Shown one piece after another: positions 1-59,000 of a stretch of 64,000 bases of DNA. Origin of the DNA: Amoebophrya sp. A120 (lineage: Eukaryota > Protista > Dinoflagellata); contig CAJINV010000001.1 of NCBI GenBank assembly GCA_905178155.1, positions 6,047,860 to 6,111,859 on the forward strand. The letters run 5' to 3'. The stretch's first letter is position 1. Every line of letters starts with the position of its first letter. A program made the position numbers and the translations under genes. The notes beneath the pieces were generated by a model that made no database searches, was not told the DNA's origin, and was given only the letters and a program-made list of their open reading frames with translations.

Positions 1-1503
1 TGTGTCCGTGCTTGTTTCCCTCGGTGGCGGAGGATGCAGCACCCGAATCTTGTTTGTCATCCTCTCCGCCAACTAGCGCCGCGAGATCTACTTCCGTGGC
101 CGCAGCCGCAACCAAAACAGACGGAGCCTCGCCTAACTCCCAAGGCGGGGATGCTGGGGATGCTTCTGCGGCAGCGGGTGCGAAGAATGGTGAAGAGGAG
201 CAGCACGACGAGAATGAGCACGCCGTTGTTACCGTAAAACGGAACGCCACCGGCCTGGAGTCGTCCGGAGCGTCCTCGGCAGAGAGCGTAAGTTCTGGGG
301 ACACCGACGACGGGCACATCGGGGGGCCGTCCCCGAAGAAAAAGAAGCAGAAACAAAAGCTGAAGGCGAAGCCAGGCAAATCCAAATCGAAGTCCACCAA
401 GGTGGGAAGCAGCGAGACGAGCGGCTTTCTCAACCTTGGTAGCGCAGGGACGTCGGATCCCTCGAAGGTGTCAGCGGTGACCGACTCCGCCCAGAGCTCC
501 GGCTCTTCATTGGATATCCCACTTGAAATTTATTTCACTTTCGTCTCCGAATAGATTTTGGTGTACAAAATGAGTCAATGCTCGTCAGAGTGAAGAAGTC
601 AGGACGTGGGGCTTTGCATCTTTGACCTGTGGAGGTCCTACTCGTTTTGCATGATATCAACTTGAGTTGTTCATTGTTGAGATACATAGCTGGAAGTCAG
701 GGTGATTTTTTGAAGTGGGATGTCGGAAGACTCGTCCGGCAGTGGTGACAACGAGACAGGCAAAGGAGAGAAACGCCACGGGAAAAAGCACCCAAAGAAA
801 AAGAAACCGACTGGAGCAGCCCCGGTCGCCGCGCTTCCCCCCGGGCTGCTTGGCGAAGCGGAGGCCGCGCTGCAGGCGATCGGCTTCACTCGGCGGCAGG
901 CTCATGCGCTCGGGCAGCAGATTGCTGACACCGCCGAGGGCGAGTTGAAATCCGAGGCAATGCGCCTGAACGACGAAGAACGGTTATCAAATGAAACGAC
1001 GTAAATCCTCGAAAGAGGACGAAACCGCGTGCAGCACGCGATGCGACCAGCTTGTTTCTACTTTAGTTTTTGCATTTCGTTTTCGACAACGTCTCCTTCT
1101 CCTTCTCGCCTAGCCAACACTAAATGCTAAAGTGCCTATGATTGATTCTGATGCTGTGATGTTGAAAAAGCGGGGTGAACATCAAATCGCTGGCTACAAG
1201 TCGAAGCCTGGCGTGCTGCAGCGCAGTATTTTTTCCAACGCATACCGGCAAATCGCGGAAAAGGGACTCGGCGGGGCCACAATCCTCGATTTGCAAGATC
1301 TGGTGGCCGAATTGGTACACCAAAAGCCGGAATTCTTTCACGAGTACACCGATGGAGACGATGCGGTGAACGCAGACACACAGGCTGCACTCGACCGGGG
1401 AGAGCCGGTTTCCATTCTCGCCCACAAGGTAAAGAAAGCCAAGCACCCCAAAGCCGGCGCAAAACACAAGCCAAAGGCAAAAGCCGCAAAAAAGCACCAT
1501 TAA
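1..1503 (+). CDS. 3' part of paralogue 1 of the tandem vWA/TM/helical-repeat family (exons approx. <1-514, 728-983, 1249-1503)
   Basis: Spliced translation gives AEAALQAIGFTRRQAHALGQQIA...LNDEERQIAEKGLGGATILDLQDLVAELVHQKPEFF. This matches the C-terminal domain of the three downstream paralogues (e.g. AEAALQDVGFSKKQAARL...EEKRIADQGLGG..IFDLNGLVDELVEQKASFF). Confidence 0.85.
515..722. mobile_element. Introner-type non-canonical intron (TIR-bounded)
   Basis: Ends tatcccacttgaaa / tttgaagtgggatg are inverted repeats. Flanks ttgga / tcgga. Removing element+5 nt joins ORF 12-554 in frame to ORF 720-1004. Confidence 0.8.
984..1248. mobile_element. Degenerate introner-type intron
   Basis: Starts ttatcaaatg, ends ...cgcataccgg; direct repeat cgg. 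Removal gives DEERQIAEKG as in the paralogues. TIR is weak. Confidence 0.6.
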
Positions 1504-2982: not shown

Positions 2983-5900
2983 ATGCTGCGTGCTGTTCTC
3001 GAAAAGCTAACCGCAGTTTATTTCGTTTCCGGATGGTTGCTATTGCGGCTGGATGTCGATATCGACCAGGGCGGCGTTTTTGTTTCAGCCTTCACGTTCA
3101 AGCTGAGATCAACCAAAGCTCCGAACGTTGGGCGATCGAGAGGACAACCTCATCTGAAGAACACGGGTAGGAGGCTGAGAAAAGATACTAACGACGACCC
3201 AAAGGTTACGCCAGTAGCACTTTTCCAAAAGGTGCGTGAAGAGAAGAGTGCTAAGGCAAGCAGTGCGTCTTTCGCGGAAGAGCGCGTGGGCCACCAGGAA
3301 AATGCAGGCGCGGAACTGAATTTTCGGAATAAACAGAACCGCGCGGGGCAGCGGCAGGGTCGTTTCGAGCATGATAAGCGCAGCGAAAGCGGCAGTGGAA
3401 CTACCCTGGGCGCAAGCGCAGCCGTAGTGGTGGAGGCTGCTTCAGCAACCCGTACAACGGTTGGCGCGAGGGCACAGGCCTACTTCGACCTCGTGGAGAG
3501 CAAGGTGCGCCAGCTGCGCCTTAAGATCTACGAGGCTGCGGCGGCCTGCAAGGCGGACGCAAAACCCGAAAAATGCTGCGGCAGCTCCAGTCCTCGCGCT
3601 ACGTCGAGCTCGTCTTCGTCCTCGTTCGGAAGGATCGGGGAGTGCAGCGCGGAACAAGGCTGCTTCGCCATGGACACTACCGGGGGGAAAAGCGTGCGGG
3701 TCAGGTACGACGCCGTTGCGGTCACGGACGACCACGAAGATTGCTTATCACGAGCCATCGTCCACCTGTTCTTGGACGAGGCCAACAAGCCCGCGGAGGC
3801 GGATGTGGACGGGACGAAGCTGTTGCGCAACCCCATCACCGAGCAGAGCAGCAAAAGCGACGTCACCGCGGACCTGGGGTTCGCCACGGTGGCTCTCGAA
3901 AAACCAGGAGACGGAGCAAACCGTTTTGTGGCGCGCTGGCCTGTCAGCAATCACACGGTACGCACCGACCACGCCGCACCATGGTACGTGAAGACCCTGA
4001 CGGGTGTATCCTGTGTAGAACCGTCCCCGGCCCATTCTAGCTTTCTATGTTGTCTTTGTGATGCGCCGTCGCACAACCACGTCTTCGATTTTCGCTCAGC
4101 TCTAGCAAGTACATGTGTGATGTTGTGCTGCCAGGCATTTGCATTTTCTATTGCTAATCATGCGCGAGTGCGATGATAGCGATACATATCCGCTACTGCA
4201 ACTTTCTTATCTATTTATTAGGATGAGAGAGATGAGACTGAGAGGCTAGTAATCTCGACCACAAACACAATGCTGGTGGCTCGCGCTTATCATGCACAGA
4301 CCTCCATCACCGCAAGATTTTCACTTAGAATCACCGATCCCGGGTTGGGACGAGGCTTTTACACGGGATACAATGGAGTGTCGAAGAACGTGGTGATTGT
4401 TGTGGACCGGAGTTGGTCCATGGACATGACTAAATCGTGGGAGGACGCGCGAGGTGCCGCCCTGGCCGTGCTCGAGTCCCTCGCCACCACCGATAAGTTC
4501 TTTCTGATGACCTACCAGCACCCTGTGCAGTTCGCGGCCTTCGAGTTCGTGCACGCCACTGCGGCGCACGTGGCCGCCGCGAAAGCGTGGCTGGACCTCC
4601 AGTTTCCGATCGGGGGCTCCACCAGTCGCCCGGATGCGGAGTTTGCGATCGGGGCTGCGATCACGGTCGGCACGCTCGGCGTCGTCCCCGAGGCGTGGCG
4701 CACGAAAATAAGCGGGACGGTGAACAATTACGACAGCGACGATCGTCGGTTGCCACCGGATCCCGCGTCAGACGCATCATGCCCCCTGGCGGCCGCAACA
4801 CGCTGCGAAAAGACGATGGTGTTGTTTATCTCAGACGAGAACTTCAACCAGGACAAGTTTGACCACAAACACGGGACCTGGTTAAGGAACCTCCTCGAGG
4901 CCACGGAGAAACTCGAAGCAGATGAGGCTCCTCTTGAGAACGACATCGACCCTGCTGTTTACCTTAACGTATACCGGCTCGATTCGAGTCATGATAAGGA
5001 GGCGCCGCCGCCGACCGTGGACGGTCCCTACAAGACCATCGCCGGCCAGTTCGATGGTGAGGCGGAGGTCACTCGCTGGCAGGAGGGGGCGCTTGCGGAT
5101 CGAGTGATCCGTTACTGGCAGAAACTTGTCAACAGCAACGACGGCGATGACGTAACGTGGAGCGCACATGAAGACGAGGAGGGCTACCACCTCACGGCCT
5201 GCCTACCGCTTGCACTAGATTACTATGTTGCGGCAGCAGGTGGAGCCGCAGCTGACACAGTCCCCCCCGGCCTCGTTTGCCTCGACCCTCGAGCGGCACT
5301 TCCTATCAGCCTGGCGCAGCTGGAGTGCCACACAGATGGCTTTCATGAGGAGCTTGCGAACCGGCTGAACGCCCGGGGCTGCACTGCGGAAGCCTTGAGG
5401 CAGCAAAGGGCCCGACGGGGAGCGTACTGTAACACATTGATAACGGCCCTGCAAAAAGACCAGGAGCTCGAGACGGAGGTGTTCGACTTTCTCGAAACTC
5501 TGCACGACGTAAATTTCACAAGCTCCACGCTCTCCGGGGCGATGGAGAAGGCGCTGACCTTGGTGCCCTGTATAGGTTGTGACCTCGGTAAACCCATTTC
5601 CCGAGAGGACAAGACCGATCCCAGCGTGAGATATTTTGCACACACTTATCCCAATGGTACAGAGGTGGACTATCTTCCCTCTTGCCCATCAAAACAAGAT
5701 CAAGCGGCCGCGGGGGATTGCTCAGACTACGAGAAGCAGTGGCGACAAACGTATCCCCATCACGCCCTGTATCATTCCGAGGACGATGACGGGAACGGGG
5801 GTGCTCTTCCTACTGTGCAAGAACGGGCCAACATCTGCAACTCCACGATCATACCACCTGCAGTCCTGTTGACGCAATTGGGCGGGGGAGGTGTGGCGGA

Positions 5901-8900: not shown

Positions 8901-9438
8901 TAAGTTGAAGGCGGTCGGCGCGCTCAGCCGTGGGAGATCGCCGCCGGCGGAGCCAGTGGACCCTACTAGCAGTGCACCTGCTTCATCCACAATCACCAGC
9001 ACCGCCCACGCGCCGGCCCCGCCGCTACCGCCCGGGCTGATAGGCCAGGCGATTGCGGCGCTACAGGACGTCGGGTTCGACCCCCAGCAAGCCGTGCTCC
9101 TGTCGCGAAAGATCGCGGCGGTCGATGCCGCAGAGCTGAACGAGAGGGCGCTGACCGACGGCGAGCGGGCGGTCGCGCAAAAGGGCCTTGGAGGCGTGAA
9201 CATACCTGATCTGGACGAGCTCGTGGAGCAGCTGGTCGCGCAAAAGGCAGTCTTCTTCGCGGAGGCCCTGTCTCCGGAGTCGCAGGCGGAGGCCGGGGCC
9301 GCGCGGGACCGCGGGGAGCCTATGTCCCTTCTCGCGGACCGGTGCGCGGACCCCGTCCGGGGAGCGGCGAAAAGAAAGTGGAAGCTTCTGGCAAACGCAA
9401 ATAAACCCAAACCCAAGAAGAACGCGGCTGCTGGATGA
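2983..9438 (+). CDS. Paralogue 2: alpha2delta/CACHD1-like vWA ectodomain, single TM, 7 cytoplasmic helical repeats (exons approx. 2983-4006, 4376-9438)
   Basis: Hydrophobic N-terminus. PWYVKTLTGGVSKNVVIVVDRSWSM...AVLESLATTDKFFLMTY resembles the alpha2delta RPWY...PKDVVILVDVSGSM junction, with a MIDAS DxSxS motif. TM VCLLFVVIFALLIIVVLLLFCCY. Repeats of type ExALxxAGLS..A..LA. Confidence 0.8.
4007..4370. mobile_element. Introner-type intron
   Basis: tatcctgtgtagaa...ttttacacgggata inverted ends. Element+5 nt removal gives TLTGGVSKN (paralogue 3 has TRTGGVRKN). Confidence 0.8.
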
Positions 9439-10448: not shown

Positions 10449-13400
10449 ATGCAGCACGTCGTTCGAATGCTTCTGGTGCCGGCGCCGGGGTCTTTGGTAC
10501 TACAAAGTTTTCTGCCAAGATTATCCTTGGGATACACCTTCCGTACCGGTTTGAAAAGAAGCTCCCGCCACGTTAAGACCCTTCCGGTGACGACGAAGAA
10601 AGCAAGTGCAAGACCGATTCTACCCAGGAGAGAAAGGACGCGGCGACAGCAAAAAAAGACGAAAGAAGAGTATAGCACGCACGAAAATTTCCTTCAAGCC
10701 AGCTCTTCCATCAAGCAGCAACGCCGTCTACAGTACGAAGAGCGTAAAATAAGAACAAAGCATGGCATAGTTGAGCGCAACCAAGACGGGAGCTCCGGCA
10801 TCACGTCTAACCCCAAAAGTGATAGCACCGAAAAGTACAGTGGGCAAAGTTACAGCACGGGTAAAGATTTGGTTCCTCCACTCGCTCCGACTGCAAGTTT
10901 ACTGCAAATGAGTTTCAAGAAGGACCAGGACCAGGAGCAATTGCAATACGCCGCACAGGATTATTTGGACAGGACGGAAGAAAATGTGCTGGCTTTGCGG
11001 AATGAAATACTGGACATCGCAACCACTTGCGCAGGCAACCCTCAATATTATGCTCCGCAAGAGGAAGCCTATGCTTCGTTGGGGGTCTGCGATGCGCATG
11101 CGACGGATGGTGGCTGTTTTGAGTTCAAGAATAGAGTCGTTGTGAATTACAACAAAGTAGGGATCCGAGACAACGCGGAGTGCTTGCAGCGCGGCATTGC
11201 GCGCCTTTTCCTAGATGAAGCCCACAAGGACTCGTCCGATGCGCTTCTGCGACAGCCGATCACACAGGACACGAAGGATTTGGCGAGCTCGGATCTTGGC
11301 TTTGCAACCGTGGTGCTCGAGCCCAGCAGTGGCACAACGCCTGCATCTTCGAGGGATACTAGTGTTGCGGTCGTGCGTTGGCCGCATTCGCACAGTGAAG
11401 AAATGAAGGTCAACCACGCCTACACGGCACCAGCGGACGCCGCGCACGAGGTCTTGCAGTCAAGAGTGGAAGATGGTAAGGAGGTCAAGTATCTGCAGAA
11501 CCCGCTGCGGAATCACGATTCGAGAAGTATCAACGCGCCCTGGTACGTGCGGACGCGAACCGGGGGCGTCAGAAAGAACGTCGTGTTGTCTTTGGACGTA
11601 TCGAAATCGATGGAGCTCAGTGATTCCTGGCCGATCGCGCTGGATGCCGTCAAAGCAGTGCTCGACTCCCTGGATATCAGAGACCGGTTTTTTGTCTCCA
11701 CGTTCGAACACACCGTGCAATTTTCCGCATTCGAGTTTGTGCACGCGACGCCAGCAAACGTCGCACGTGTCAAGCAGTTGCTAGAAAACAAGTATCCGTT
11801 TGGGGGCATAAACGTGCGTCCCGACTCGGAGTTCGCTATTGGCACGTCGATTGTGATCGGTACGCTGGGCGTGGTGCCAGGGGCATGGCGTGACAAGTTT
11901 CGGGATAGTAACGACGGCGCGGATCCTAGGAAGTGGAAATTTGCTGTTGCAGTTTTTGTTCCTGCTGTGCTTCATCCCCGCACAGAAGTGGTGGCCACCT
12001 CACGGCTAGTCAATTTCTCTTGCATGACGTTGAATTAGAATTGATGCTGAAGTTGGTGTATCATTGCACGAGACGAAAAATGATGTGCAATGTCACCCCC
12101 ACACCATGGAAGCAGCAATTGTACTATCTGCTTTATTGCATTTCCATCGTCGAAAAAAACAACAAGCGAATCAAGCGATGACAATCTGCATGCTGATCCC
12201 CATGATCTTCAGCATGGCGAAGAAGATTATAGAAAAAGGAATCACATAATCATTTGTTTCTCACACAACGGACATATATACGTCTACGTCCGGGTTAGAG
12301 GCTGGAGAACGAACCAGCAACGCAGTAAATTTCCATTGCATACAATCCCCTGCTGTGGGCTTACCACCGGACGGTCATTTAGCGGATAGGACGTGTCCAT
12401 CGAAGTCGTCCACTGTGTGTGAACAGACTGTCGTGTTAATCATGACCGATGAAGACTACAGCGATCAGTACGCGAGAGATGGCTCTGGCGAGCTGTTGAG
12501 CCACTGGGATGGCCTTGACCATTGGGACCAACATGGAACTGCGATTACGTGGCATGGCTACGATACGTGGATCAAAGATCTGCTACAAAGTACAGCGCGA
12601 ATAACAGGCTCACAGGGTCAGCAGGGAGGAGCTTCTCAGGAGCCGGCTGTGTACCTAGACATCTATAGGTTTTACCGCGAGGAAGAAGAGCCACCGATCG
12701 ATCTGAGCCAAAAAGTATACACAGACATCACTGCGCAGTTCGGTGGCGAGGTAAGGCTGGCGAAGCACAGCGACAACGAATTGCTACAGTCGATGGGAAC
12801 CTATTGGCGGAGACTGCGGGACGCTGGGGCTTCAGAAGAGAGCCCCAGCACTTCTATCATTTGGTCCGCCCATGAGGACGTGGAAGGGTACCACCTGAAT
12901 GCCTGTGTAGCGATCGACCTCCGCGGGACCAGTGATTTGCAAGGCGTTGTCTGTCTCGACCCGCGCGCTGCGTTATCGCTCAGCATGCAGCAGTTACGAT
13001 GTTTGGAAGGTTTTGACGTGGCTGTAACCGAAATGCTTGCGCGGACCGATGCCGGTACGTGCAGCATAAATTCGCAACAGGCGGTGCGGGAAGCATACTG
13101 CGAAAATTTAGAAGCGAGCCTGGCCGGCTCAGGGGGTTACAACGTTGTGGTGCCGTATCAACTGATATTGGGAGACAACTGGAGCTCATGGAATGAGCTG
13201 TCTGCTGCGACCGAAGAGGACTGTGCGGAGCCCTCCGCGTGTCCCGACCAAAAACGAGTGAAATTCACATCGAGCTGGCAGAGGCATCGCGGACAACTCT
13301 TAGACGCCATGAGCGCGGGAATCCTCACCGCCGGGCCTGCGAACTGTGCGACCGATACCGAGGGGGGCGGGGACGGGTCGTGCACCGCAGCTGCGCGATA

Positions 13401-17487: not shown

Positions 17488-18687
17488 GGACGCACAGCGG
17501 GAGGTGGACGGAAACTGCTCTGGATCTTGCTGTCCTCCGCGCTTGCGCCGCGTCAGATGTACAAGCAACGTAGTACGTAGGTACTTGCTGCATTATCTTG
17601 TGCGGAACAGCGACTCGCGCGCCGACTGCTGTCTTATCAATCAGGCCGCCTGCGTTCTTATCAGGTAGCAAGAAAAACTTTTTCTAACGAGAAAGTTGTA
17701 TATTGGAACTGACGCTTACGCTTCGGCTCTCAAATAGAAAGGCAAAGGGAGGACCCATGTCCCAGTTCGCCCTGCTTCCATTGCATTTTTGATTTTGTTC
17801 CCACTGAACTTGAAGAATGAGATTCGTCCATGATCATGCCGACTAAAGAACAAACTGCTCTAGTATATACCGCCGTAGTATTCACTTCGTTGTCGTTCAC
17901 TGCGTATAGGTATACGTACACCAGTAACTTCTAAGCAACATTCATCGTGGCTCGTCCTCACAATCGTACAAAACGCCTCCTTGGAGGAGAAGCATGCATG
18001 AACACAAGGAACCGTACTAGCAGCACATCAAACTACGCAGAAGTGCTTCGTCGTTACTGCGAATGCGATGATGTGGTCCCCGGTCTTTTGAACTCAAATC
18101 AATCGTATCCAGTCTTTCGTCGTTCAAGTCGTTTAGTTTTGTTGAGAAATGCATATGCATGTTGTTGTTTCAGATTGTCGTGTTGGTTCATGCGTCTGAC
18201 TTCCGTGAGTTTTGCTTTTGGTCTGTTTCGTAAGTAAACTGTCACTGTCTACTGCTTCGGACGGTGATCAAGTTGCGCAAGGTCTGTCTCCTCCTCTTCA
18301 TACTCTCAAAAACATTATTTCCAGGAGCCAGAACAAAGGAGTATTCTCGTATCCCTAGCTTACTCTGATGCAACTTAGGTAAGCGTTCCCAATCCCAGCA
18401 CTATATTCCTATGCTTCCCGCTCAAAAAAAGGGAGTCTAAAGCGGTAGTGATAAGCGATAGTCGTAACTTTTACTTTTTTGTCGAAGTCGTCGAGTAGGT
18501 ACAACCATGGACAAACAGACGACGCCGAGCACTTCCGAATCTTTTTCCTGACTGCCATACTTACAAACAGAACATGCAGATACACGGCGACAAACCAAAA
18601 CCGATGACGATAAAGATGCATTGGAAGGGTTATTCTTGCTCTGCAGCAGGGACGCCCACGCCAACGAGCAACGCCAAAATGACCACG

Positions 18688-21600
18688 ATGAAGACAGGAA
18701 AAAAAATAATTCTCCCCGCCCTTCTGGCATTCGGCCCGCTCGTGCAGTTTCTGCTTCTGCAGCAACAGAAGCAAGTCGCCGCGTTCACTTTGAAGGATCT
18801 GCTGTCCAGGCGAGCCAAAGGGCGGCGCGGAGCTGGGAAGAGCGAAGCAACACCAAGCTCTGTGATATCTCGAGGGCCGATCAGCTTGAGGCAGTCACAG
18901 TCCACGTCCAGAACGAGTCGCAGAAGTAAGACGACGGGGGTGGCAGCCAGGGCAAGCGGAATTAGAAGAAGTGCAAGAGCGCGGCTTGAGCCTGACGGGG
19001 AGGACCGCGATCGGGCACGTATGATCTCTTTGAGTACCGAGATCAAGGACCACTCGCACAGACAAGAAGGAGAACAGGAAGTAGAGCTGGAGCAAGGACA
19101 ACTGACAGAAGTCGAAGAGGCGGAGGTCGGTGCACTTGAAGTATTATCGTCACACCTTGATGAAGACCAGGGGCACGCGCACGAGACGCCTACTTCTGGG
19201 TCTTCTTCCTTTAGTGCCCTTATCGCAGGCCGCAATCGCAAGCATGCCGAGGATCATGCGGTGAAGCGTAGAAGCTCGCAGCCGCAACAACCGGACGAGC
19301 AACCACGTGTGGAGGAGGATAGTGTCGATGATGCTGCAGCGGAGAATCTGCGTGTAACGGGGATCGATTACGAGCAGCAGGCACTGGAGCTACAAGTTCC
19401 GAGCACGTTTACTGAGGAGAGCGAGCGGACGCAGGAGGGCCTCTTGCAGCGAAAAGTGGAGAAAATCGGGCTGAAGAATAGTGAAGCTCACTATCTTGCA
19501 TCAAGGCAGCAACATCAGCACGAGGAAACACGTGGTCGCGCGTCTGCGGTGAGTAGCGATGCCACCGCAGCGGACATCTTGGCACACGTGGAGGAGAATG
19601 TGCGTGACTTGCGAAACCAGATCATAACCGATGTTGCCGTTCAGTGCAGCAGTGATCCGGGGGACAAATACATGACTAACGAGATGGACTTGAACTCGAA
19701 ATTGAAGGACCTGGATTCGTCCGGTTGCACTAATTCCGTCGGCTGTTTTCCGTTTAAGGGCGTATATGTCAACTACGAAAAGGTTGGGGTTCAAAATCAA
19801 GCTCAAACGGTGGCGCAATCGCAACGAAAAAACTCTTGTCTGCAACGGGGAATCGCGGATATCTTCCTGCGCGAGTCCAACACAGGAAACTCATTGCGAA
19901 GCCGTATCACGAACAGTAACGAAAACGAGGACAATGCCGACTTGGGTTTCGCTTCCGTGGTGTTGGAGCCTCCGCGCTATCGAATGCAAATAGTATGTTC
20001 GTCAATGAATGAAAGATTGAAAATGCAGCTGCAAGGACATACACATACTTATCAGATCTGGACTAGGACTTCGAAGTTGTATTAACGCAAAATTGTACTG
20101 CGATTTCATTTCATTATCTTGAGTCGGCTTTCGTAGAAAGATTGTGAATAGTGCGCCTCTGCATGACCCAGTCTCGACAACGATTCCTGACCCTGACCAA
20201 ACGGGCCAACATTTTCTTTTCCACTTGACATTGTCCACTGGAAAAGAAAATGTTGGCCCCTTCAGGAAGGAAGATTTTTTGTCAAGTTGACAAAAAATCT
20301 TCCTGTTCTCAGTAAGGAAAGCGTTACCTGGACTCCCCCTCTAGGTGGCTCAACAGGATGAATAGCATTCAACGCGCGCCCCAGGAGCGCGCGTCTTTGG
20401 AGGGCGCCTTACATTATTACTGCGTTGCGTACAACTTTTACTTTACTGAAATAAAGAAAAAATTGAAACAAAGGATGAAAGGAACGTGCCTCCGAGGGCG
20501 ACACGAGTAAGTACTCGAGATTGCATCGGGTGTCGGAGCATGAAGAAGAAGAATTAATATGATGAACTTATATATACACTAGTTTGCTTTTTCTTTTTCG
20601 CTACTCAGACGATCGATATATTATTTGCTGAGGATACCCGACTGACGAGGACCAAAGTAACCACGAAGAGCGAGCAGGCAGTGGTCCGGTGGCCCTTAAG
20701 CAGTTACGTGCCGGGCGATATGACGAAAACAAGTTGGCACCAGCGCGCCCTGACGCGAGGGATTACAAAAAATGTCCTCCTCGTGCTGGACCGTTCGTAT
20801 TCGATGCATGGAAATGGATCGTGGGAGCCGGCGAAGACCGCTGCTAAACGAGTACTCCAGTCCCTCGAGGACACGGACCGATTTTTCTTGATGACCTTTC
20901 AGCACCCCGTGCAGTTTTCCGCCTTCGAGTTTGTTCACGCAACCGAGGACCATATCAAGGCTGCGGAAGAGTGGCTGGACAGTATTCTGACGCCGAATGG
21001 AGGAGCCCCTGATAGTGGTACTGACGTGCGTCCCGACGCGGAGTTCGGCATCGGAGCTGCAATCGTGGTTGGAACTCTCGGCTTCGTTCCACACGCGTGG
21101 CGTCAACAAATTCTCGGGAGCACGGGCGGGAACGCAAAACAATATCGCATTCAGGTCAACGATGACTATCCTCCTCACCGCATTGATCTTCCGGGGATGC
21201 CTGTGAATGCAAACGAAGCTCGCGGTGCATGCTGGCCTTCCACCCCGACCGAAAATTGCGAGCGGACGTTTGTTTTCGTGATGACGATATGCGATGAAAA
21301 AGTGCTTCTCCAGCTGACCCTGGAAGGTCACCGCTAAAGAACGCAAGTAAGTCGTTCTTTGTGTCGCAATGTGTCATGAAGTAGTTTGATCGTCCATCCT
21401 TGAGTGCAAAATTGATTGAGAATGAGAGGGTAGGGTCACGCGCAGGAATATCACGCCGCCATGGCCTACCGGCGTTTTTGCGACTGCCGGAGCAACTGTG
21501 AAACCCTTTCGGCTGATATGCAAACGACAAGGACTTTTTTATGGATGAAGTGTAAAATTGCAATATGTTGACTCATAGAAGCGTCATACATAAAAATCAA

Positions 21601-36245: not shown

Positions 36246-37697
36246 TAGATCTTAAACGACGATCCTGACTAGAAGTAGAACACGACGCATGCATCGCGCA
36301 GAGCGATGCAGAAATAATACAAGAAGCAGAAGATGACGCAGGAGAACGCAAACACATATCAGACCGGCGCTGCAATGAAAAAAACACGTTTTCCCATAAA
36401 TTTTTCTTGACCCTAGTACGTAAATTTGTTAGTTTGACATCGAAAACGAAATCAGATACAGATCCCCATTCTTCAGAGCTCCCCTACCCCATTCCATGTG
36501 TCGCATACGCATGTTTGCGCACAGTATGAAGCAGAGTTGCATTTTTTTTTATTTTTCTGGAGTATTAACTACATCGGTTGCGGTACCGGGAAGCTGTTTC
36601 GACCTGCCGTGCTACAGTTGCGGCCCTCGCCGTAGTCTGCGCAGAGTTGAACTCGGCTTCGATACCTTCCAAAATTCATTTTTTTTTTATCTGCATCTTC
36701 CTCACTCTGACTCTCTGTCTCTTGTAAACACTGCAAGCACCACCACCACTAGCGTTTTGTCAAACGATAAATTCAAAATGTTACCGAAAGTTACAACGAA
36801 ACTTACCTTTCACGCACCACTCCCGCAAGCCAAGTTTCATCCTTGAGTTTGTGAGTCTGAGCACTATGTTTCGTTAACGCCCCGACGTATGCAAATGAAG
36901 GCACGTTGAAGTCCCCTGTTCTTTTTCAAGTAGCCCACGGAAAAACAGAGCCAATTCATTGAACTGACCTTCCCCAGTACAGCGACCCCCGTTGAATTTT
37001 CAGCTAATCTGTTGCAATCGGCCTTCGCGTGCTCGCTTTCGCAAGGGAAGCTGAAGTTTTTCTTCGATTCCCCGCCTGTCAGCGAAAGTGGCGTTTTGAA
37101 AGTAGTTCGCCACGAAGATCATGTGTGATGTTTTGCCTTTTGGCTTAGCAACGCAGTTGAATTTATTTGCGTGAATGAAAATAAGAGAGCTAAGCAGAGT
37201 GAGAAGACAAAACGGCGCAACTTTTTTTTTCGGTTTCATGAAACAAAAACAAAAAGGCTAAAATCCGCAAGAATTAAGTAAGTGAGTAGAAGTACGCAAT
37301 GAGTGCAGAATGAAAAAAAAGCGTTTATGATTGTGAGGTCGCAGAGCGAGAGGCGAGTCGATGAAGTAGCCGAGCGTGGAGCACTTTCCAAGATGGGCTT
37401 TGCCAATGCCATCTTCAATCTTCTTCCTCCAAATAAATGAACTGACTTCCAGTGAGAAACACGACCCCTCTAACACAACAAAACGACGATTGGATTCCAA
37501 AGCGTTCATTTTCATCCCAATAGATAACAGGATTTTACTCCCGCTGCATACTAGTAGTCAAGAGCACGTCGCCTATTTGAGTGCTTTTGCAACAGTATAG
37601 AAAATTTGAAGCAACTACTTCTGGTAAATTTCTGAGCAGCTCGTATAAGAAGTTACAGTCCTACCCATTCCTACCCATAAGAATCAAGAGGAAAACA

Positions 37698-41977: not shown

Positions 41978-43510
41978 ATGCTTCAGCGTGCTTCCACTCT
42001 ATTCCTGGAAAGTGATTTTTCCTCGGAGACAAATGCAACATGCCGCGGGGCCACGATCTTCGATACTATGTGGTCGACGTTCTCGTTCATAGGCAAAGGA
42101 GCAAATACCGGAGGCGGATTTTGTTCCGGGGTATTAGGACATCATCAAGACGAAAAATTACATCAGCTGGTGCAGGAGCATCATTTTCATTACCCCAACG
42201 TCGGGACAAAGTCCTTCGGAAAAAGAAGCGTAAGGACAGCGTTTCCGCCGGCGGAAGACGGTAGTTGTCGGAAGGCCGGGGCTATCAACTGTAAAAATGT
42301 CTGGGTCTGGAAGAATTCATGTTTGTCATGCTTGTCTGGCATGATGACTCTTAAATCTGTCATGGACGTTACCCAAGAGCTCCGCTTTTCTGTGATGCAG
42401 AGCCGCAGTTTGTCATGCTGAAGAGGCAACACCTAGGAGCTCAGAAACTTGTCATGCTGAGCCAGTATTCGTAGCCTCATTATGAGACGCCACCCAGCAT
42501 CACAAGTTTCCAGACCCAGACATGTTTACATTTGATAGGGGCGACAAACTCCTGCTTGTTGAAGGTCGTGCCAGGAGATTTTTTATCAACTGCAAATGTG
42601 TCTGGGTCTGGAAGAATGCAAGACTTGTCATGCTAGTCTGGCATGACTCCGCACTCTGTATTGCGTGGCCATGCAAAAACGCAGTTTCTCATGCGGAATA
42701 CGCAACACAGAAGCACGAAAAAACTTCTCATGCTTGGCTGCGCATTACAGTTCACTTTATTGTTCACTGACTTGCATCGCAAGTTTCCAGACCCAGACAT
42801 ATTTGCAATGCATGTTTTTATGAGGTAAACGGGATTCCGGACGTCCACGACGAAGTGGTCAAAACAGAGTATGAAACGCTCGTTAGCTGGAAAAATCTCA
42901 AACGGAACAATACCTGCTTCCATGACAGGCTGCAAGTGCAAAGTAACTCTAGTTTGTATTCTTTCTACTACTCAACCCTGCAGCTACTTTGCAAGACAGA
43001 CAATTTTCGACCGATATCAGTGCAGATGCGGTTTCTTTAGAGTTCCATGTTAGGGTTGACCATGTCATGCTAAACTAACAAGAACATAACGCGTACATTG
43101 CGACTACCGAGATCATCATGATGCGCATAATTTTCCCGGATCGCAATCACAAAAACAAATTGTTCTAGTTTAGAAATGGCTCCCTTTGACGAGCAGGCCA
43201 TACAAGCATCTGCGTGCCGCCTGGGCGAGTGGCCGAATACCAAAATTGGATGGACCAGACTCCTGAGTGGCGCGCGGCGAAGCGCAAGGCGCGCGAAGAC
43301 GCCGAGTTGCGACGGAAGCAGGAGGAGTGGAACGCATTGACGAAGGAGGAAAAGAATGAACGCGTGCAGCTCGCGAGGTTCGAAGCGGAAAAGGCCGCCA
43401 AGAGTCAGAGCAGCGACGACAAAAAGGAGGACCCTTTGGAGGTAATTAAAAAGAAGCTCAAAATAAAAATGTTTTCCGAAATGAAAAATGTCCGCTGTGC
43501 AAACTACTAA
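41978..43510 (+). CDS. Hypothetical protein with C-terminal charged helical region (multi-exon)
   Basis: Removing two introners gives a continuous frame: GSCRKAGATNSCLLKVVPGDFYEVNGIPDVHDEVVKTEYETLVSW. A probable GT-AG intron leads to the last exon RVAEYQNWMDQTPEWRAAKRK. Start and last junction uncertain. Confidence 0.55.
42283..42537. mobile_element. Introner family A, TSD ggggc
   Basis: tatcaactgtaaaaatgtctgggtctggaa...ttccagacccagacatgtttacatttgata with ggggc on both flanks. Confidence 0.93.
42584..42814. mobile_element. Introner family A variant, TSD ttttt
   Basis: tatcaactgcaaatgtgtctgggtctggaa...ttccagacccagacatatttgcaatgcatg with ttttt on both flanks. Frame is restored (PGDFYEV). Confidence 0.88.
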
Positions 43511-44158: not shown

Positions 44159-45840
44159 ATGTCGTCGGCGATCTTGAAGCAGGTGGAGAGCCTGCTCCAG
44201 CCAGGCGAGCGAATCGTGACCGACGCCGAGCGAGAGGCGCAGGACAACGAGAGGAAGGCTGCGGCAGCCGCACCAAAGCGAATTTTCGACGTTCCTGCGA
44301 TCCATGGGATATGAACTGCAAAAGTATCGTACTAGTAGTAATTGCAATACAAATTCGCTCAACATGACAAATGGGCTTTGTCATGCTGATTTGCCTTAGG
44401 AACGAAATTTGTAATGCATGACTGCGATTACTACAACACGTGTACGATACTTTTGCAGAGCATATGGGAAGCTCGAGGAAATTCGGTACAAGCCAGCACC
44501 TAATACGAAGCACGTTCCATGTATGGAAGTGTCAGAATCGAAATTGACAAAATCGAAAAACTTGTGATGCATAAAATCGATACCAGTTGGAGCCTCAGTT
44601 TGCAAGCGGCGCATGACAAATTTCGGGAGCACCCAAATCCAGTCTGTCATGCTGTTTGGGCAAAGAAGACTGCTCCTGTCATGCTACTCTGGCAGCGCAT
44701 TGCATACTCCTAAACAGGCTTACAATCGGTCTCATTTGCCTGCTCCCCAATACAGGCCTCCAGTGCCCTACATTTTATGCATCACAGATCTTTCGACTTT
44801 GTCGATTTCGATCCTGACACATCCATACCATGGGTCGAGACCTTAGCAATCACCGCTGCAAAACCCCTGGACAAGACCCTGGTCAGCGAAGATGTAAAGC
44901 GGGAGCAGGCCTTTCTCGAGCAAAGTACAATTTTTTTCTGCGGTGAAGTTGTCTAGATTTTTTGCATAACTTGGAACAAGAAGTTTTTTCCTGCATTTAC
45001 TGTCATTGTGCAGCACCAGGCCATTAGGCCAATCTGAATTATTTTCAAAAGTGACAACTGACAAGGACAACGCATTTGATTTCTTTCTGTTCTCTCCAGG
45101 CAAAGAGCTGGTCGCAGAGGGGTACCGAAGACTCCGGGTAATGAAGATTCCAGCGTCTAGGCCAGAGGACTTCCTCGCAGAAATGTTCAAAACCGACGAG
45201 CAGATGCTGAAGGTGCGCAGCCGCATTGTGGAGGAGCAGAAACGCATCACCGGCGTGGAGGAGCGAAAACGCAACCAGGCCAACGCTAAGTTCGGAAAGG
45301 CCGTCGGCGTCAAGCGCATGGAAGCCCGGGCAAAACAGAAAAAGGCGACCTTGGAAGGAATCGAGAAATGGAAGTACAGTCTAGCTACTGATATGTTCTT
45401 CTACACACAGCACATTTTTTTATGCGTACACATGGGTTGCTGTTGCTGAACTAAAAGTTTTATCACAACCAGAACCGCTGCCACCAGAAGGCAGTGTAGT
45501 GCATCCATTTTGAAAAGTAAGTACTGGCGGCAGCAGCACATGCAGCCTGTAGATGAGATTTTCTATCGAGGAAACCACTCGTAATCTTAAAACTCACAGG
45601 TCCGACAAGGGAAAGGAATCCAAGTCTATCGAAGAGGTAATAGATGGCGTCAAGGCGAAACAGCGGAAGTCTGAAAAGAAGGGAAAAGGCAAGGGAAAGG
45701 GCGGAAAGGGTGCATCATCAGGAGCTAAGGGAGGAAAGGGCAAGGGTAAGGGCAAGGGCAAGGGCAAGGGCAAGAGCGGATCCAAGGGTAAGAAGGGAGG
45801 AGGCAAAAAAGGCAAAGGACGGGCAACGAAGAAGCGCTAA
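44159..45840 (+). CDS. EBP2: rRNA-processing protein EBP2 homologue (multi-exon)
   Basis: Spliced: AIHGKLEEIRY...VPWVETLAIT...DVKREQAF...RPEDFLAEMFKTDEQMLKVRSRIVEEQKRI...KFGKAV...KKATLEGIEKWK, then a Lys/Gly-rich tail. These are characteristic Ebp2 motifs. Confidence 0.9.
44310..44464. mobile_element. Introner, TSD tggga
   Basis: tatgaactgcaaaagtatcgtac...gtacgatacttttgcagagcata with perfect tggga flanks, inside EBP2. Confidence 0.92.
44522..44827. mobile_element. Introner, TSD ccatg
   Basis: tatggaagtgtcagaatcgaaattgacaaaatcgaaa...tttcgactttgtcgatttcgatcctgacacatccata with perfect ccatg flanks. Removal restores the conserved PWVE motif. Confidence 0.93.
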
Positions 45841-51430: not shown

Positions 51431-54400
51431 ATGAGTTCCCTCGACAGCATTGTGGGTGTTGCGGTCGCGAAGGCGCTGACCAACACCTCGTATGAAAAAC
51501 GGAAGCAGGCCGCGTTGGAACTGGAAAAGGTGGTCAAAGAAGCGCCGAAGGACCGTGTGCTACAGATTCTGATTCTGCTTCGCGACTATGTGGAATCGCC
51601 CACTGCCAACGTCCGCAAGGGAGGCCTCATCGGGCTCGCAGCCGCTGCCATCGGACTGGACACGCACACTTTTTTACGCACAGTAAAATCAAGCGAAAAC
51701 GGCGCTTCGCAGCAGACCAGTGGAAAGAGTGGGAGGTGAGGTCATGTGATAGTAGCAGCAGAACGACCTTAGTAGAGCCACAGCAGTAGCTGACGATATG
51801 AAAGTAGACGAACCACAAGCATGCACTTTTTTTCGTCGGATCCATCTGCCTGTCGAATCTTGTAGATAAGAAGGCGCTGTTTGATTAGTTTGAATCAAGG
51901 AGCACGTCGGAGGAATGTCCTTGTCTTTGTGGGCAATCAATCCAGAGTTTCAGTTTTTTAACTCATAAAAGGTCTCCACGCGACCATGTTTATGTTTTGT
52001 AACCTTCACACAGGCCTCGCGACGGCGGCGATTTTTTCTCGCGCTTGATTGCGGAGCACTACCCGAAGGATACGGACGGCGCGGATCTTGCTACTAGTCC
52101 AGCGGATGAGGTGGACTCGAAGGCGGTGGACGGAACGACGGGGTCTTCCACCTTGCAAGCTGGCGGCTCGTCCTCGTCAAGTGCACGGTATGTTGCTTCC
52201 GGTGCGGTGGCCGGAGATCGTGGTGCATTTCCAGGAGACATCAACTCCAGAGCCGGATTATTACTGGATGACGCCACCGCTTCGGTTGAAGCCGGAACAC
52301 CAGGACATGTGGGCGCGGGAACAACTGCAGGAAATATGGCGGTGAGCAGTGAGTACAAGGACTTTTGGGACGACTATATCGAGTTCCTCGTCCCCCCAGT
52401 GTTGTCCGTCTTCGAGGACGAACACCCGCGGGTTCGCTACTACGCCTGCGAGGCCATGTACAACATCATCAAGGTCGCCAAACCCATGCGGTATTTCAAC
52501 GAAATTTTCGACGGCACTGGCCGCCACACTGCGGATCCGGACAAGGACGTGAAAGCGGGGGCGGTGTACCTGGACAAGGTTCTGAAGGACGTGGTTACAG
52601 ACGCGGACGCGGTCGGCAAACACGGTTTTCGCACCGTTTTTTTGCCGCGGTTCATGCCTCTCCTCAGCGAGCGCATCCAGAGCAAGAACCCGTTTCTGCT
52701 CTCCTTCCTCCTGGGCTGGGTGCAGCTCCTGCAGACACTGCCCGACCTGGATCTGTACCCCTACCTGCCTTCGCTCCTCCCCGGCCTGTTCGGCATGCTG
52801 GGGGAGAACGTGAAGGACTTGCGCGTGAAAGCCGACTTTTGTCTCGCCAATTTTCTGAAGGGGCTGCGGTCATCGTTCTCGACGTCACCGGGTGCCATGA
52901 ACTTCTTCGGACAGGGCGTGGAGTCGCCGCTGCTTGCTCCGCAACTGCAGCTCGGGTCGCAGGATCTGCGCCGGCTGAGGCACCGCGTGGTGCACACGAC
53001 CACGCCTATTTTGGTCGACATCGTGCGGAACATCCACGGCGAGATGCGGCGGAAGCCGGGCGCGAACACGATCGCCCAGACGCGTACGTGGTCGTCGCAG
53101 CTCACCGCTGCGCTTGGCTGGCTGCAAAGTTTCGTTGAGTTCGCGACCAACGAGCTGGAAGAGCAGCGCAGCGCGGGGATAGCGAGAGGTTTCTCTGCAC
53201 CGGCAGCAGATGTTGATCCTGCGGTTTCTTCGCAGCAGCAGCAGCTTCTTTTGGAAGTAGAGGCAGAACTCTTCGCACCCGCACCACTGAGCGCGCCCGA
53301 CGACCCGGAGCCTTTCTCTCTGCTGCCCTTGTTTCTCACCGCTGTTCTTCCTTGTTTGGATTCGAACGACCGCGACACCGCGCGCATCGCGGTGGAAACG
53401 CACTCGGAGCTGCTGCAACTCGTGGACACCTCGGAATACGGCCGCGACATGAAGCGGCCGTTGCTACTGGCCCTGATTCGCTCTTTGCAGAAAGAGATGT
53501 CGCCGGACCTCATCGCCACGAAATCGACGGCCAGCGGGCCGCTGCGGCCAGCATCACGAGCGCCGAATTATGGTGGTGGGGTCGGTGGGGGTGGAGGACC
53601 AGGAGGGAACAAGAATAAACTGGAGCCGGCGATGAACACAACTGCCAGTCCAGGTGTCAACTCAACTGCCGCTGACGACGTGGTGCTGAAGACCGCGGCG
53701 CTGCAGTGGCTTTGCATGTTGCTATCGAACCGGCCCGAGGAGATGTTGGAACTGAGCATGGAGCTGTTCGACCCCTTGTTTCAGACCTTGTCGCACCCCG
53801 ACACCGAGGTCGTCATCGCGGCGCTACAGGTTTTCGCCCGAATCATGAACGAGGCAAAGGTGTCTACGCTAAACGCGGCGGAAAACTTGCAGGACGTAGC
53901 GCAGGAGCAAAAAGACTGGAGCAAGACGCAACAGAGCAAAAGTCTCGCCGCAGCCGGGATGCTGGTGACCAGTTCTTCCGCAGGGGGCGGTGCATCATCA
54001 GCTGCACCTTCAGGAGCGACTACAACCGGCACCTCCGCAAATAAAAGCAGTAAAGTGAAGAGTCGTACCGTGGTGTTACAAGAGAATCTACCGCAGAGAA
54101 CCGGGGCAAGCACTCCGGTCTCCATGTCTAGTGTCGGTGGTGCATCCTCTTCGCCGGGTTCGCGAATTCCTCCGGCGGTGTTAGCTGCAGGGGAAGGCGG
54201 GATGAAACAACTGCAAGAGCAGCAGCAGAGCAGTCAGCCGGAGCGCATCCGGATTTCCAAGCTGTTCCAGGGAGTGTGTCGAAAATTGCTGGACCTGTTC
54301 CGGATCGATTCGCAAATGTTCGACCAGCGCGGCCGGCTCGTCGTCAGGCAGCTTTGCGACAAACTAGACTGCGAGCTGTTTTACCGTACGGTGGCGGGGA

Positions 54401-56052: not shown

Positions 56053-59000
56053 ATGAAAACTATGAAAGAACGCAGAGCGGCTTGTTTTCTCGTAACACGT
56101 CCCACAATAGCGAATCTAGGTGGCTCCCGGGCGCTCATCTTCACACTTTTCGTCCTTGCAGTTGCTTTTCTTCACCCCCTTCTCTATTCTAACCTCTTCG
56201 CCCAGGCACAGAAGACGGTCGCGAGTCTTGGCGACCCCTGCGACTGCAATCAGAACCACGACTATTGGCAAACCATGATCGACACCATGCTCCTGCACCT
56301 CACCCCGGAACTTCCGAACGCGCTGTTCGCGAAGGGGTCGGCGTCGGAGTCTTTCTTCGGGAAGCAGAGCTGCATCTGGAGCTCGGACAACGAGGACTCG
56401 CACCGCCTGGCGGCGTTGTCCGACTGCATTCCGGGGTTCGTGGCGATGAAGATTTCGTGTGTGCAGCACCTGGTCTGGAAGGCCTATGAGGCCATGACGG
56501 AGTCGAAGGACCCAGAGAACAACGACGATCCGCTATCCTGAGTAAAAACGTACCCACGCCAGAGTTGTAATGCAGATTCGCAAAGACAGGATGACTTGTA
56601 ATGCGCATCCCCATGAGAGCCATTTCCAATCGTGTTTTGGAATTTGTGATGCTGTGAACAGGATGAGCAGCTGGATTTGTGACGCGGCTGCACTTGCTAA
56701 CCTGCACTACACTGCAGCTTGTCATGCGTGACTCACAAAACTCCTAGGTTTGTGTTGCAAAATCCTCATCCTAACTCTGGCGTGGGTACGTTTTTACTCA
56801 GGATATCCGCACTTTGTGGATGCCAAAGCCAGCGTCGATCTGGTATGGCGCTCTCAACTGTTACATTCTCAACTGTTACATGAATTTGTCATGCAAAAAC
56901 CGCAATTGGGAAAGGGGCAAGCTTGCAAGTCTTGCATCACAAATTTGGCATGGATTTAGATGCTATTTAGCCCTTCGACAATTTGTCATGCGAAGCAGCT
57001 TGATTGTCTTGCGGCTCATGGTCATTTTGCATGACAAATCATGTAACAGTTGAGAATGTAACGTTTGAGAACGCCATATCTGGCGCTGGGGCACATGGCG
57101 GAAGTGTTGCGGACCGCGGCGTTCGGGATATAACAGTGCACAACTCCCCCTCCCCCTCATTTGTCATGCAAAATACCCAATCCACCCTTTGCCTCTTGGC
57201 ATTGTTTGCATGACAAGTTCTGGTAGCCCAAATAGCACTACACTCCACTGCAAATTTGTCATGCAAAAACAGCACTCTTTCTCTTGCTGATGCTTGTATT
57301 GCTGTTCATGCTATACAAATGAGGGGGAGGGGGAGTTGTGCACTGTCATACGGGAAAGATTGCATGGACGAGTCTGTGTGGCCGGTGTCGATGAACGATA
57401 TCTACACCAACTACATCCGCTTTTACCGCACCCACAGCTACTACCGCGTCACCGAGAACATGCTGAAGGCCCTGGTCTGGGTGTCCGAGACCTGCGCGAC
57501 CTCCGCCGATTGCGTGGGCGGCAACGTCGCCGGGCGTAGGTGCAAGCACGGTCGGTGCGTCGCACCCGAAGATCCGGGGCTGCTTGCGGGAAAGGATTCG
57601 GACGTGCAATACTTCTGTGCGCAGCCCGGGGGCTATCTGGACGGGGCGGGCCGTTGCTGGCACATGGGCAACGAAGGAGAATCGTGCAACGAAGTGTGCG
57701 AATATGCGGGATCGAGGCCCGACCCAGCGTACTTCCCCGATAAGCACCGGCACATGACGACACCAATATTGCGGGCGAAGAGCGAGAGTGTGGTATAGTA
57801 CACAGGAAGCGTGCTGTTTATTTTTCTTGTAGGTTCGGCCTCGGCAGCTTCCGGTGTTGGGTTTCTTTTGCTAGTGTTCTAACTAGGGGAAAGAAGCAGA
57901 CGCACTATCTACCTACCGCATTGACGTATCATCGTCAACATAAAAATTCTCATCCAGGTAATCCTGTTGATGAACGATCCCTGGATGGAGCAGGAGTGCT
58001 ACGTGCGTTCACAAAGCCGTTTCCACCCAAGCATCGAGATCCCGCCCGCGTTGCGCGAGCGGCACCAGCTCCCGGAGAAGGAGGACTTCAGAGACCCGAA
58101 CTGCTTGCTCTCCTGCCAGTGCGAAAAAATCGCCGTCCGCCTCGACCAGATCGGCACGGAGAAGGAAAAGCCTTTTTCCGATTGCGTGTATGACATCCGG
58201 CACATGTGTGTGTCCGAGGGAATTTTTCGGCAGTCCGTCAACTACCACGATCCCGATGCTTTCGAGGAGGGCGGCATGTTCCGCGCTTGTTCCGAGGTGG
58301 GGCAAACGCTGTTCAAGTTCGACATGAGTTCCAAGCTCTACCCCGAGCACCCGATTGCCACCGACAAGGTCGCGTTCCTGCTCCCCGTGACCTTCAAGCT
58401 CACGTCCACCTGGCACGGGCTGCATTCTCTGGTCGCGCCGTTCGTCATGCTGTACCTGGAGCCGGAAAAGTACGGGTTTTGGCAAAACGGGCAAAAAGTG
58501 GACCTCTTCCTGATCAACCAAAACCTCGAGCGCGATGTGGAGCACTGGAACAAACTTTTAGGGTACGACACCATGAAGTTCGACGGCAGGTACGGCTGGT
58601 TCGCGCGCTTCCTGCAGGCTTTCGAGAATGCGAACGTGATTTCCCAAGGCTACGAAAACATCAACCAGTGTTACGACAAGGTCGTGTTCGGCCACGAGCT
58701 GATGATGTACAGCGGCGGGGGCTACACGACGAAGGAGCACGTCCAGTTCTTCACGCGGAAGATGAAGAACTTTTTCCTCGGCGGCGGGCTGCAGCGCAAA
58801 GGCGCAGCCATGCTGGCGGAGGGGCGAGACCCGGAAGAAAAGCCGTTCTACCGCGGGCGCGCGAAGGGCGGGGACGAAAACGACGCGAACACGGTCTACA
58901 CCTTCATCGAGGAAAACGCCGACCAGGCGCGCGCGAGGAGGGCGCGGGAGGAGGAGAGACGGGGGCCACTGGTCGAGTTTTCGGACCCGCGGGACGGCTT

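Follow-up and report, generated by a model that had tools for sequence, protein, structure and literature searches.

Introners and transposon-derived introns in Amoebophrya and elsewhere

Amoebophrya is a parasitic marine dinoflagellate in which more than 60% of introns are non-canonical in strains A25 and A120, and the published text leaves open what their borders are and by which mechanism they are removed. The introners of A120 were described by Farhat et al. (2021, PMC7789003) as carrying inverted repeats of 8–20 nt that start with TAT and contain variable bases and a run of A, flanked by direct repeats of 3–5 nt (a 5-bp example is given in the legend to Fig. S19); the intron borders were called variable and unknown. 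Here we analyse such elements in a window of 64,000 nucleotides of Amoebophrya sp. A120 (contig CAJINV010000001.1, positions 6,047,860 to 6,111,859 of the forward strand; coordinates below are those of the window). All 20 introns with RNA support share a single register, beginning 1 nt before TAT and finishing 4 nt past the 3' end of the element.

By their anatomy the window elements appear to be A120-type introners: they have TAT inverted repeats, form repeated families and coexist with GT-AG introns. They differ from the variable borders of that report in showing one register at 20/20 junctions, including old single-copy introns without a repeat. Gozashti et al. (2025, PMC12130899) likewise report mostly DNA-type families with terminal inverted repeats (TIRs), among which insertions that 'co-opt both' splice sites are common, and one family with an integrase-like open reading frame (ORF) between its TIRs; unlike the present case, their automated A120 calls give duplication sizes of 2–5 and mixed mechanisms (rows covered: 19/58 for A120 and 28/60 for A25). 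Another Amoebophrya is reported to have canonical introns and U1 (PMC12005148).

Outside the genus, the introns of Euglena (Nomura 2025, PMC12501133) are similar in having paired ends, a fixed spacer from motif to cut and a longer 3' overhang; they probably originate from miniature inverted-repeat transposable elements (MITEs), and their code too was found via introns whose junctions cannot slide. Euglena uses CAG/CTG at +4 and -8 to -6, with spacers of 3 and 5–6 nt and a required purine at the exon start, whereas here TAT/ATA lies at +2 and -7 to -5, the spacers are 1 and 4 nt, and no exon-base requirement was seen; the euglenid signature N3-CDG...CHG-N5-6|R is not carried by the window introns. 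In Fritillaria borealis (PMC11282704, PMC13326754), transposon introns with TIRs and target-site duplications also lack GT-AG and are attributed to the U2 spliceosome, but they have AG-AC/AT ends, an exonic TAC preference and a conserved U1; the end dinucleotides here are free, and U1 was not found by Farhat et al. (PMC7789003). The introners of Micromonas and Aureococcus are MITE-derived and form one of their splice sites within the duplication, but need canonical splice motifs. The window introns do not, and insertion is therefore not limited to AG/GT targets. In the published introner text examined, the fixed register, the three invariant bases described below and the extension to old single-copy introns are absent; figures may show part of this. 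The register is a real feature and adds a rule to an intron class already described.

RNA joints remove the element plus five nucleotides

RNA contigs were mapped on positions 10000–29610. Runs X1 and X2 represent one sample and X4 a second; that X1–X4 are RNA is a guess, supported by the GT-AG joints within the contigs. Fifteen joints were found, 3 of them GT-AG and 12 non-canonical, and at 12/12 directly seen non-canonical joints the removed length equals the element plus 5 nt. One canonical and one non-canonical joint are repeated in X4. The introns, with those assigned by contig arithmetic and the host transcript, are as follows.

11926..12346, +, non-canonical intron CT..AT; element 11927-12342, TAG donor; joint 11925->12347 in X1 and X2; predicted
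19977..20640, +, non-canonical intron; element 19978-20636; RNA joint, 664 nt; predicted
21287..21828, +, non-canonical intron; element 21288-21824; RNA joint, 542 nt; predicted; stem bulged by 1 nt
22051..22511, +, non-canonical intron GT..GC; element 22052-22507; RNA joint, 461 nt; in-frame AG at -3 passed over
23578..24019, +, non-canonical intron; element 23579-24015, TAC donor; RNA joint, 442 nt
24137..24472, +, non-canonical intron TT..TT, non-slidable; element 24138-24468, ATG end; RNA joint; predicted exactly
24798..25182, +, canonical GT-AG intron, GTAC...CAG; RNA joint
25286..25606, +, non-canonical intron; element 25287-25602; RNA joint, 321 nt; unpredicted
25770..26180, +, non-canonical intron GT..TG; element 25771-26176; RNA joint, 411 nt; predicted
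26521..26923, +, canonical GT-AG intron, GTAC...CAG; RNA joint
27009..27292, +, non-canonical intron TT..CG, non-slidable; element 27010-27288; RNA joint; predicted exactly
27453..27919, +, non-canonical intron GT..CC, non-slidable; element 27454-27915, ACA end, 0/5 repeat matches; RNA joint
28257..28503, +, canonical GT-AG intron, GTAT...CAG; RNA joint in X1, X2 and X4
28601..29018, +, non-canonical intron; element 28602-29014; RNA joint in X1, X2 and X4
29133..29355, +, non-canonical intron; element 29134-29351, AAA end; RNA joint, 223 nt
29620..29887, +, young element 29621-29883, repeat CCTGG; supported by contig arithmetic alone, as a sum with 30064; no visible end
30063..30464, +, non-canonical intron; element 30064-30460; arithmetic, with the 3' end visible as piece start 30465
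30952..31198, +, non-canonical intron CT..TT, non-slidable; element 30953-31194, 0/5 repeat matches; piece end 30951, 145 nt to next
31346..31629, +, young element 31347-31625; 30-bp TIR, family of 56534; contig arithmetic
31948..34228, +, intron of 2,281 nt; element of the 42283 family in opposite orientation with nested insertion of ~2 kb; arithmetic
34301..34614, +, young element 34302-34610, repeat TCGAC; contig arithmetic
35153..35504, +, non-canonical intron; element 35154-35500; piece end 35152 plus arithmetic
35611..35892, +, non-canonical intron; element 35612-35888, ACC end, bulged stem; piece start 35893 plus arithmetic
18331..36970, +, host transcript, 8,606 nt after removal of 22 introns (19 non-canonical, 3 GT-AG); ORF 18499-36245, 2,570 aa

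Nine junctions had been predicted before the RNA was consulted, from a model with cuts 1 nt before TAT and 4 nt after ATA. Seven of the nine were exact and two were off at one end (23552 for 23578; 27925 for 27919) because the wrong TIR end had been chosen; three joints were unpredicted. At the five wrong or unpredicted joints the 3' ends were already motif matches before the RNA was seen, and the final element definitions are partly post hoc.

For eight more elements (29621–35888), removal of the element plus 5 nt is consistent by contig arithmetic. These introns are fixed pairwise by summed lengths and one visible end each (none for 29621), and are weaker evidence than the 12 direct joints. 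The modelled transcript with all introns removed measures 8,606 nt, as does the contig, encodes the 2,570-aa ORF and agrees at 10/10 checkable coordinates. At the 31949 intron the 72 nt between contig pieces correspond to one copy of each 5-bp repeat, and this element is removed from RNA despite its nested insertion.

An earlier reading of the letters (the original prediction) had held that excision takes the element plus 5 nt irrespective of the flanks. The 12 joints bear this out, with nearby canonical AGs unused, and the junctions at degenerate elements agree (directly at 11927, 19978, 21288 and 22052, by arithmetic at 30953 and 35154); retained elements, use of canonical GT-AG sites in their place or other removed lengths were not seen in the RNA contigs. 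Its statement that GT-AG introns coexist with these elements is confirmed by three joints in the same transcript.

Hairpins with flanking direct repeats are a classic substrate for template switching by reverse transcriptase and for misassembly, and the evidence comes from contigs alone, so such artefacts have to be weighed. Joints exist, however, where the repeat has 0/5 matches and the predicted stem is weak (27454, 30953), 19 joins in one transcript yield a single 2,570-aa ORF, and one register holds throughout; we regard an artefact as the least credible of the explanations considered here.

A single register and three invariant bases

Since the repeats let joints slide, each junction was scored for its set of permitted offsets. 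An offset of -1 fits 20/20 junctions, 0 fits 13/20, -2 fits 10/20 and the mirror register, -4, fits 4/20; four junctions (24137, 27009, 27453, 30952) cannot slide. The 5-nt stagger proposed originally thus stands as a total, and is refined to 1 nt before and 4 nt after the element.

In this register T+2, A+3 and A-7 are present in 20/20 introns, T+4 in 18/20, T-6 in 17/20 and A-5 in 18/20, while random cuts of the same length carry T+2/A+3/A-7 in 1.4% of cases. Position +1 is free (A4/C6/G6/T4, n = 20), as are the last two bases. No intron has GT-AG ends (0/20) and 6/20 begin with GT, in keeping with the earlier remark that most boundaries lack GT-AG. Introns 22051 and 25770 start with GT and have an in-frame AG 3 nt short of their true end, yet in the contigs the cut is at +4, and at 25770 the in-frame GT-AG alternative ending at 26177 is unused. 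Among the window introns, base changes affect donor +4 and positions -5/-6 but spare +2, +3 and -7 (7 versus 0).

The non-canonical donors read T-A-T from +2, compared with T-A-C/T in five local canonical donors (GTAC four times and GTAT; three of the five come from full RNA joints). All nine predominant A120 motifs in Table S4 of Farhat et al. (PMC7789003) have T at the second base, in line with what the fixed register predicts, and the nine of A25 start with TT and have TTA repeats; judging from these motifs, A25 may share U+2/A+3.

The register also bears on excision from DNA by a transposase in the expressing stage, in the manner of ciliate internal eliminated sequences. The anatomy is that of a transposon, DNA and RNA come from different samples, and rare element-free alleles are possible, the joints in X5 being dominated by repeat joints. 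Nevertheless, X5 DNA contigs (29860–31371, 34583–42308) cross four elements without differences, the register has an asymmetry that goes with the gene strand (mirror 4/20) though families insert both ways, and removal stays exact in old copies whose ends have decayed. DNA excision, which the original prediction had left as an option, is accordingly very unlikely.

Element anatomy and number

A scan of the window for TA[TG]...ATA/ATG pairs picked out each of the ten perfect repeats listed below, and the degenerate elements were confirmed by reading the sequence. In all, the window contains 29 elements of the TAT...ATA type, including the 20 with RNA support, more than the 17 or so interruptions first counted. 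The inverted ends are real, but their range is wider than the TAT (rarely TAG) and ATA/ATG first described: 5' ends are TAT, TAG or TAC and 3' ends ATA, ATG, ACA, AAA or ACC. As in published A120 introners, the inverted repeat starts with TAT and continues with a variable middle and a run of A, and the border repeat is here 5 bp. Ten elements have perfect copies, which lie directly outside the terminal motifs as first noted: 29621 CCTGG, 31949 CCAAG, 34302 TCGAC, 42283 GGGGC, 42584 TTTTT, 44310 TGGGA, 44522 CCATG, 56534 TCCGC, 56844 TCTGG and 57129 CGGGA. The seven degenerate elements named at that time are likewise all present (4007-4370, 11927-12342, 19978-20636, 21288-21824, 22052-22507, 30953-31194, 35154-35500). 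The remaining elements, and an intron of the VAC14 gene discussed below, are predicted from sequence.

514..726, +, element 515-722, ATG end; frame restored at -1/+4
4006..4374, +, element 4007-4370; frame restored
42282..42541, +, element 42283-42537, repeat GGGGC; host frame open, weak coding score
42583..42818, +, element 42584-42814, repeat TTTTT, ATG end
44309..44468, +, element 44310-44464, in the EBP2 gene
44521..44831, +, element 44522-44827, in the EBP2 gene
51736..52013, +, VAC14 intron, GT-AG model GTGAGG...CAG; insert length agrees with A25 orthologue P0002
56533..56809, +, element 56534-56805; frame restored
56843..57082, +, element 56844-57078; frame restored
57128..57354, +, element 57129-57350; frame restored

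A second, motif-free scan required a perfect outside repeat and at least 11/14 inverted pairs, with 10 shuffles as the null. With 5-bp repeats it returned 27 matches versus 6–14 in shuffled sequence, and the nine of the 27 that start with TAT are window elements. Repeats of 6 bp were at chance level (3 versus 0–3), while 3-bp (209 versus 128–142) and 4-bp repeats (63 versus 30–37) exceeded the null; the 4-bp matches listed include palindromic 4-mers within the same TIRs.

Elements 31347 and 56534 are 85% identical, and 31949 and 42283 are 90% identical in opposite orientation; element 31347-31625 has a perfect TIR of 30 bp. With TIRs, a duplication of constant length without target consensus, insertion in both orientations and no ORF, the elements have the marks of MITEs and are likely to be non-autonomous DNA-transposon copies with a 5-bp target duplication. 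A cognate transposase-bearing element was not found in the window or in 482 kb of related loci, and the one long element among those loci (L030, 834 bp) has no Pfam match. The Amoebophrya introners mentioned in the original prediction are indeed published, and that description (Farhat et al., 2021, PMC7789003) already includes the TAT ends and a 5-bp repeat example.

A-7 is reminiscent of the branch A of group II introns, and the elements might be self-splicing or, alternatively, be processed by a domesticated transposase acting on the RNA hairpin. Rfam gave 0 matches at gathering score in the window for group II or other self-splicing introns. Element interiors are unrelated between families, range from 155 to 2,276 nt, tolerate the 2-kb insertion and work in both orientations; this explanation is very improbable.

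One further candidate, 43828-44161 (perfect repeat TCGTC), is doubtful: its TIR is weak, its fold z is 0.3 and its ATG is the likely start of EBP2. It is probably a chance match or an element of the 5' untranslated region.

Paired ends and short motifs

Pairing between element ends peaks at +i with -(i+3), at 9.45/15 pairs versus 3.25–5.0 at other offsets. In 15 old elements the direct repeat has decayed to 26/75 matches (about 18 expected), but duplexes between an element's own ends average -31.1 kcal/mol versus -17.2 kcal/mol for swapped ends (0/20,000 permutations as strong), and the excess pairing extends past the terminal 16 nt. We infer that end pairing is under selection.

The original prediction had made the terminal stem the ruler that measures the cut. 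Conservation of pairing in old copies upholds the stem, but the cut follows T+2/A+3 and A-7 whether or not the stem is regular. At 21288 and 35612 the stem is bulged and pairs best at offset 4, with the cut still at T+2/A+3 and A-7; in six old introns the predicted pairing at the exact register is 0.00–0.05 and the cut is unchanged. A ruler consisting of the stem alone is therefore incomplete, and the likely arrangement is that the stem holds the two ends near each other, with the register decided by short motifs.

Insertion behaviour at related loci

Related loci (at least 156, 482 kb; one end of each match picked by its TAT pattern) contain 212 elements, versus 0 in one shuffle, of which 198 have flanks and 56 can be oriented. 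Among the loci listed the same families recur (73–95% matches), with no long match to window genes. A perfect 5-bp repeat flanks 43/50 anchored elements, and 38/38 elements with confident frames on both sides need 2 mod 3 bases kept, which corresponds to one 5-bp copy. Among 104 oriented elements 46 were assigned to a family, and 4/5 families occur in both orientations. Element lengths are even mod 3 (59/49/60, n = 168), and 87 oriented insertions with perfect repeats show no excess of G+1 (30/87, p 0.24) or of terminal AG (9/87, p 0.24); insertions are therefore screened neither for canonical sites nor for lengths that would keep the frame if retained. Dropping the repeat filter to look for old elements gave a noisy result (6/21 in frame).

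A proposed relaxed spliceosome or a possible second splicing system

Removal at this register is probably the work of a relaxed ordinary U2-type spliceosome, an attribution that we hold at somewhat better than even confidence. The inverted-repeat stem would bring the ends together in place of U1 and U2AF; the element end would supply U-A-U as donor positions +2 to +4, with +1 coming from the duplication; and the 3' cut would be counted from A-7, a candidate branch point, with no need for AG. The 1 and 4 nt add up to the 5-bp duplication and both element ends carry both motifs, so any insertion, whichever way it faced, would leave the gene exactly restored.

The non-canonical donor, N-T-A-T, equals the local canonical G-T-A-C/T minus its G, and a relaxed spliceosome therefore fits at least as well as a separate system. 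Farhat et al. (2021, PMC7789003) found 83/89 spliceosomal proteins in their survey and did not find U1 snRNA or snRNP27. Loss of SNRNP27K has been linked to a +4U preference (Parker 2023), to be compared with T+4 in 18/20 donors here. Fritillaria provides a precedent, its transposon introns with TIRs being taken out by the spliceosome (PMC11282704). A more specific version, that a U1-less spliceosome dispenses with both terminal dinucleotides, reading U+2/A+3, using A-7 as a group-II-like branch that fixes the 3' cut and relying on the inverted repeat as a bridge, is doubtful though worth stating. If it is true, any TAT-ended insertion with a 5-bp duplication would be a perfect intron in either orientation, and the U+2/A+3 code would also cover A25.

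Alternatively, a second, non-spliceosomal RNA system could operate, in which an endonuclease guided by stem and motif cuts outside the stem at -1/+4, a ligase joins the exons and a circle or hairpin is released, a route of the kind suggested for the non-conventional introns of euglenids and diplonemids. In its favour, the introns have free end dinucleotides, even those that start with GT (22051 and 25770) pass over an in-frame AG, young insertions show no G or AG enrichment, and stems are retained in old copies. Euglena introns have a similar asymmetric geometry (3 nt before and 5–6 after the paired motif, a net offset of 2–3 versus 3 here) and give circular products, and RNase III with a ligase has been proposed for diplonemids. 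Against this, the canonical donor shares the invariant T+2/A+3, the cut is not fixed by the register of the stem, no candidate enzyme was seen, and a near-complete spliceosome is present that appears to have lost precisely the RNA with which donors are recognised (Farhat et al., 2021, PMC7789003). A second system thus does not follow from the elements, as the original prediction had it, but it remains a live rival, to which we give a tentative, minority weight; we favour the relaxed spliceosome over a nuclease and ligase.

Several observations count against a relaxed spliceosome reading U+2/A+3 and A-7. The second step of splicing normally depends on the G at either end of the intron, and a relaxed spliceosome might still favour G+1 or terminal AG, neither of which is in excess among the 87 insertions. 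A strong stem covers the donor and would need unwinding. The involvement of spliceosomal machinery is something that we infer, and A-7 is a putative branch point that may be kept just for pairing with U+4; TAT is also simply the transposon end. The asymmetry between donor and acceptor changes was spotted post hoc and in the related assembly amounts to only 8 versus 2 (p 0.055), so that it offers weak independent support only. Exceptions occur at related loci (a TTT donor at L042; G at -7 at L003, of uncertain orientation), and the VAC14 model donor has G+3. The RNA support comes from two genes, both on the + strand, and mostly from one sample, and contigs hide rare isoforms.

Either outcome would be notable, as a spliceosome without terminal dinucleotides or as a stem-guided system, of similar geometry to that of euglenids, in a second lineage. 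The single register provides a code that names U+2, A+3 and A-7, can be checked on existing RNA-seq and corrects gene annotation. It also explains the scale of invasion, as targets need no GT/AG and both orientations work.

Host genes and other observations

The protein encoded by the 8,606-nt transcript looks, by eye, paralogous to the products of two vWA-like genes, at 4222 and 10341. Together, 4222-9438, 10341-17487 and 18499-36245 form a tandem family of very large vWA-like proteins, paralogous by eye; vWA matches of the other genes are weak and below cut-off. Intron positions differ among the paralogues, and the introns were therefore gained after duplication. Three old introns (24138, 25771, 27454) stand at an equal position of a tandem cysteine-rich exon pair, with which they were apparently duplicated; they have diverged beyond BLAST detection and kept the register.

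For VAC14, Amoebophrya sp. A25 gives the best match that has an organism name, at 38% identity over 99%, well ahead of the other named matches. A TIR-like TAC...ACA pair at 51675-52010 also restores the frame at -1/+4, but is disfavoured as an element, the GT-AG model fitting the length of the A25 orthologue better.

The ~2-kb insertion within element 31949 (32142-34180) lies between two copies of a 15-bp direct repeat, which start at 32142 and 34166. Its minus-strand frames are broken, none of six ORFs tested has a Pfam match, it reaches several times the single-copy depth in DNA, and RNA run X1 contains a diverged copy with 59 differences; it is possibly a retroelement nested in an introner. 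In raw RNA reads of another isolate (X8), TIR-family ends corresponding to 34193-34224 and 42283-42314 are joined to foreign flank (52 and 19 reads), with the element end kept in RNA; these could be unspliced or non-coding transcripts. Finally, 37581-40619 is a stop-free ORF of 1,012 aa with VWA, Vwaint and Vint (Hint-like) domains; its RNA contig exceeds all others in X1 in depth by a wide margin, and it is the sole region here well covered in X9.

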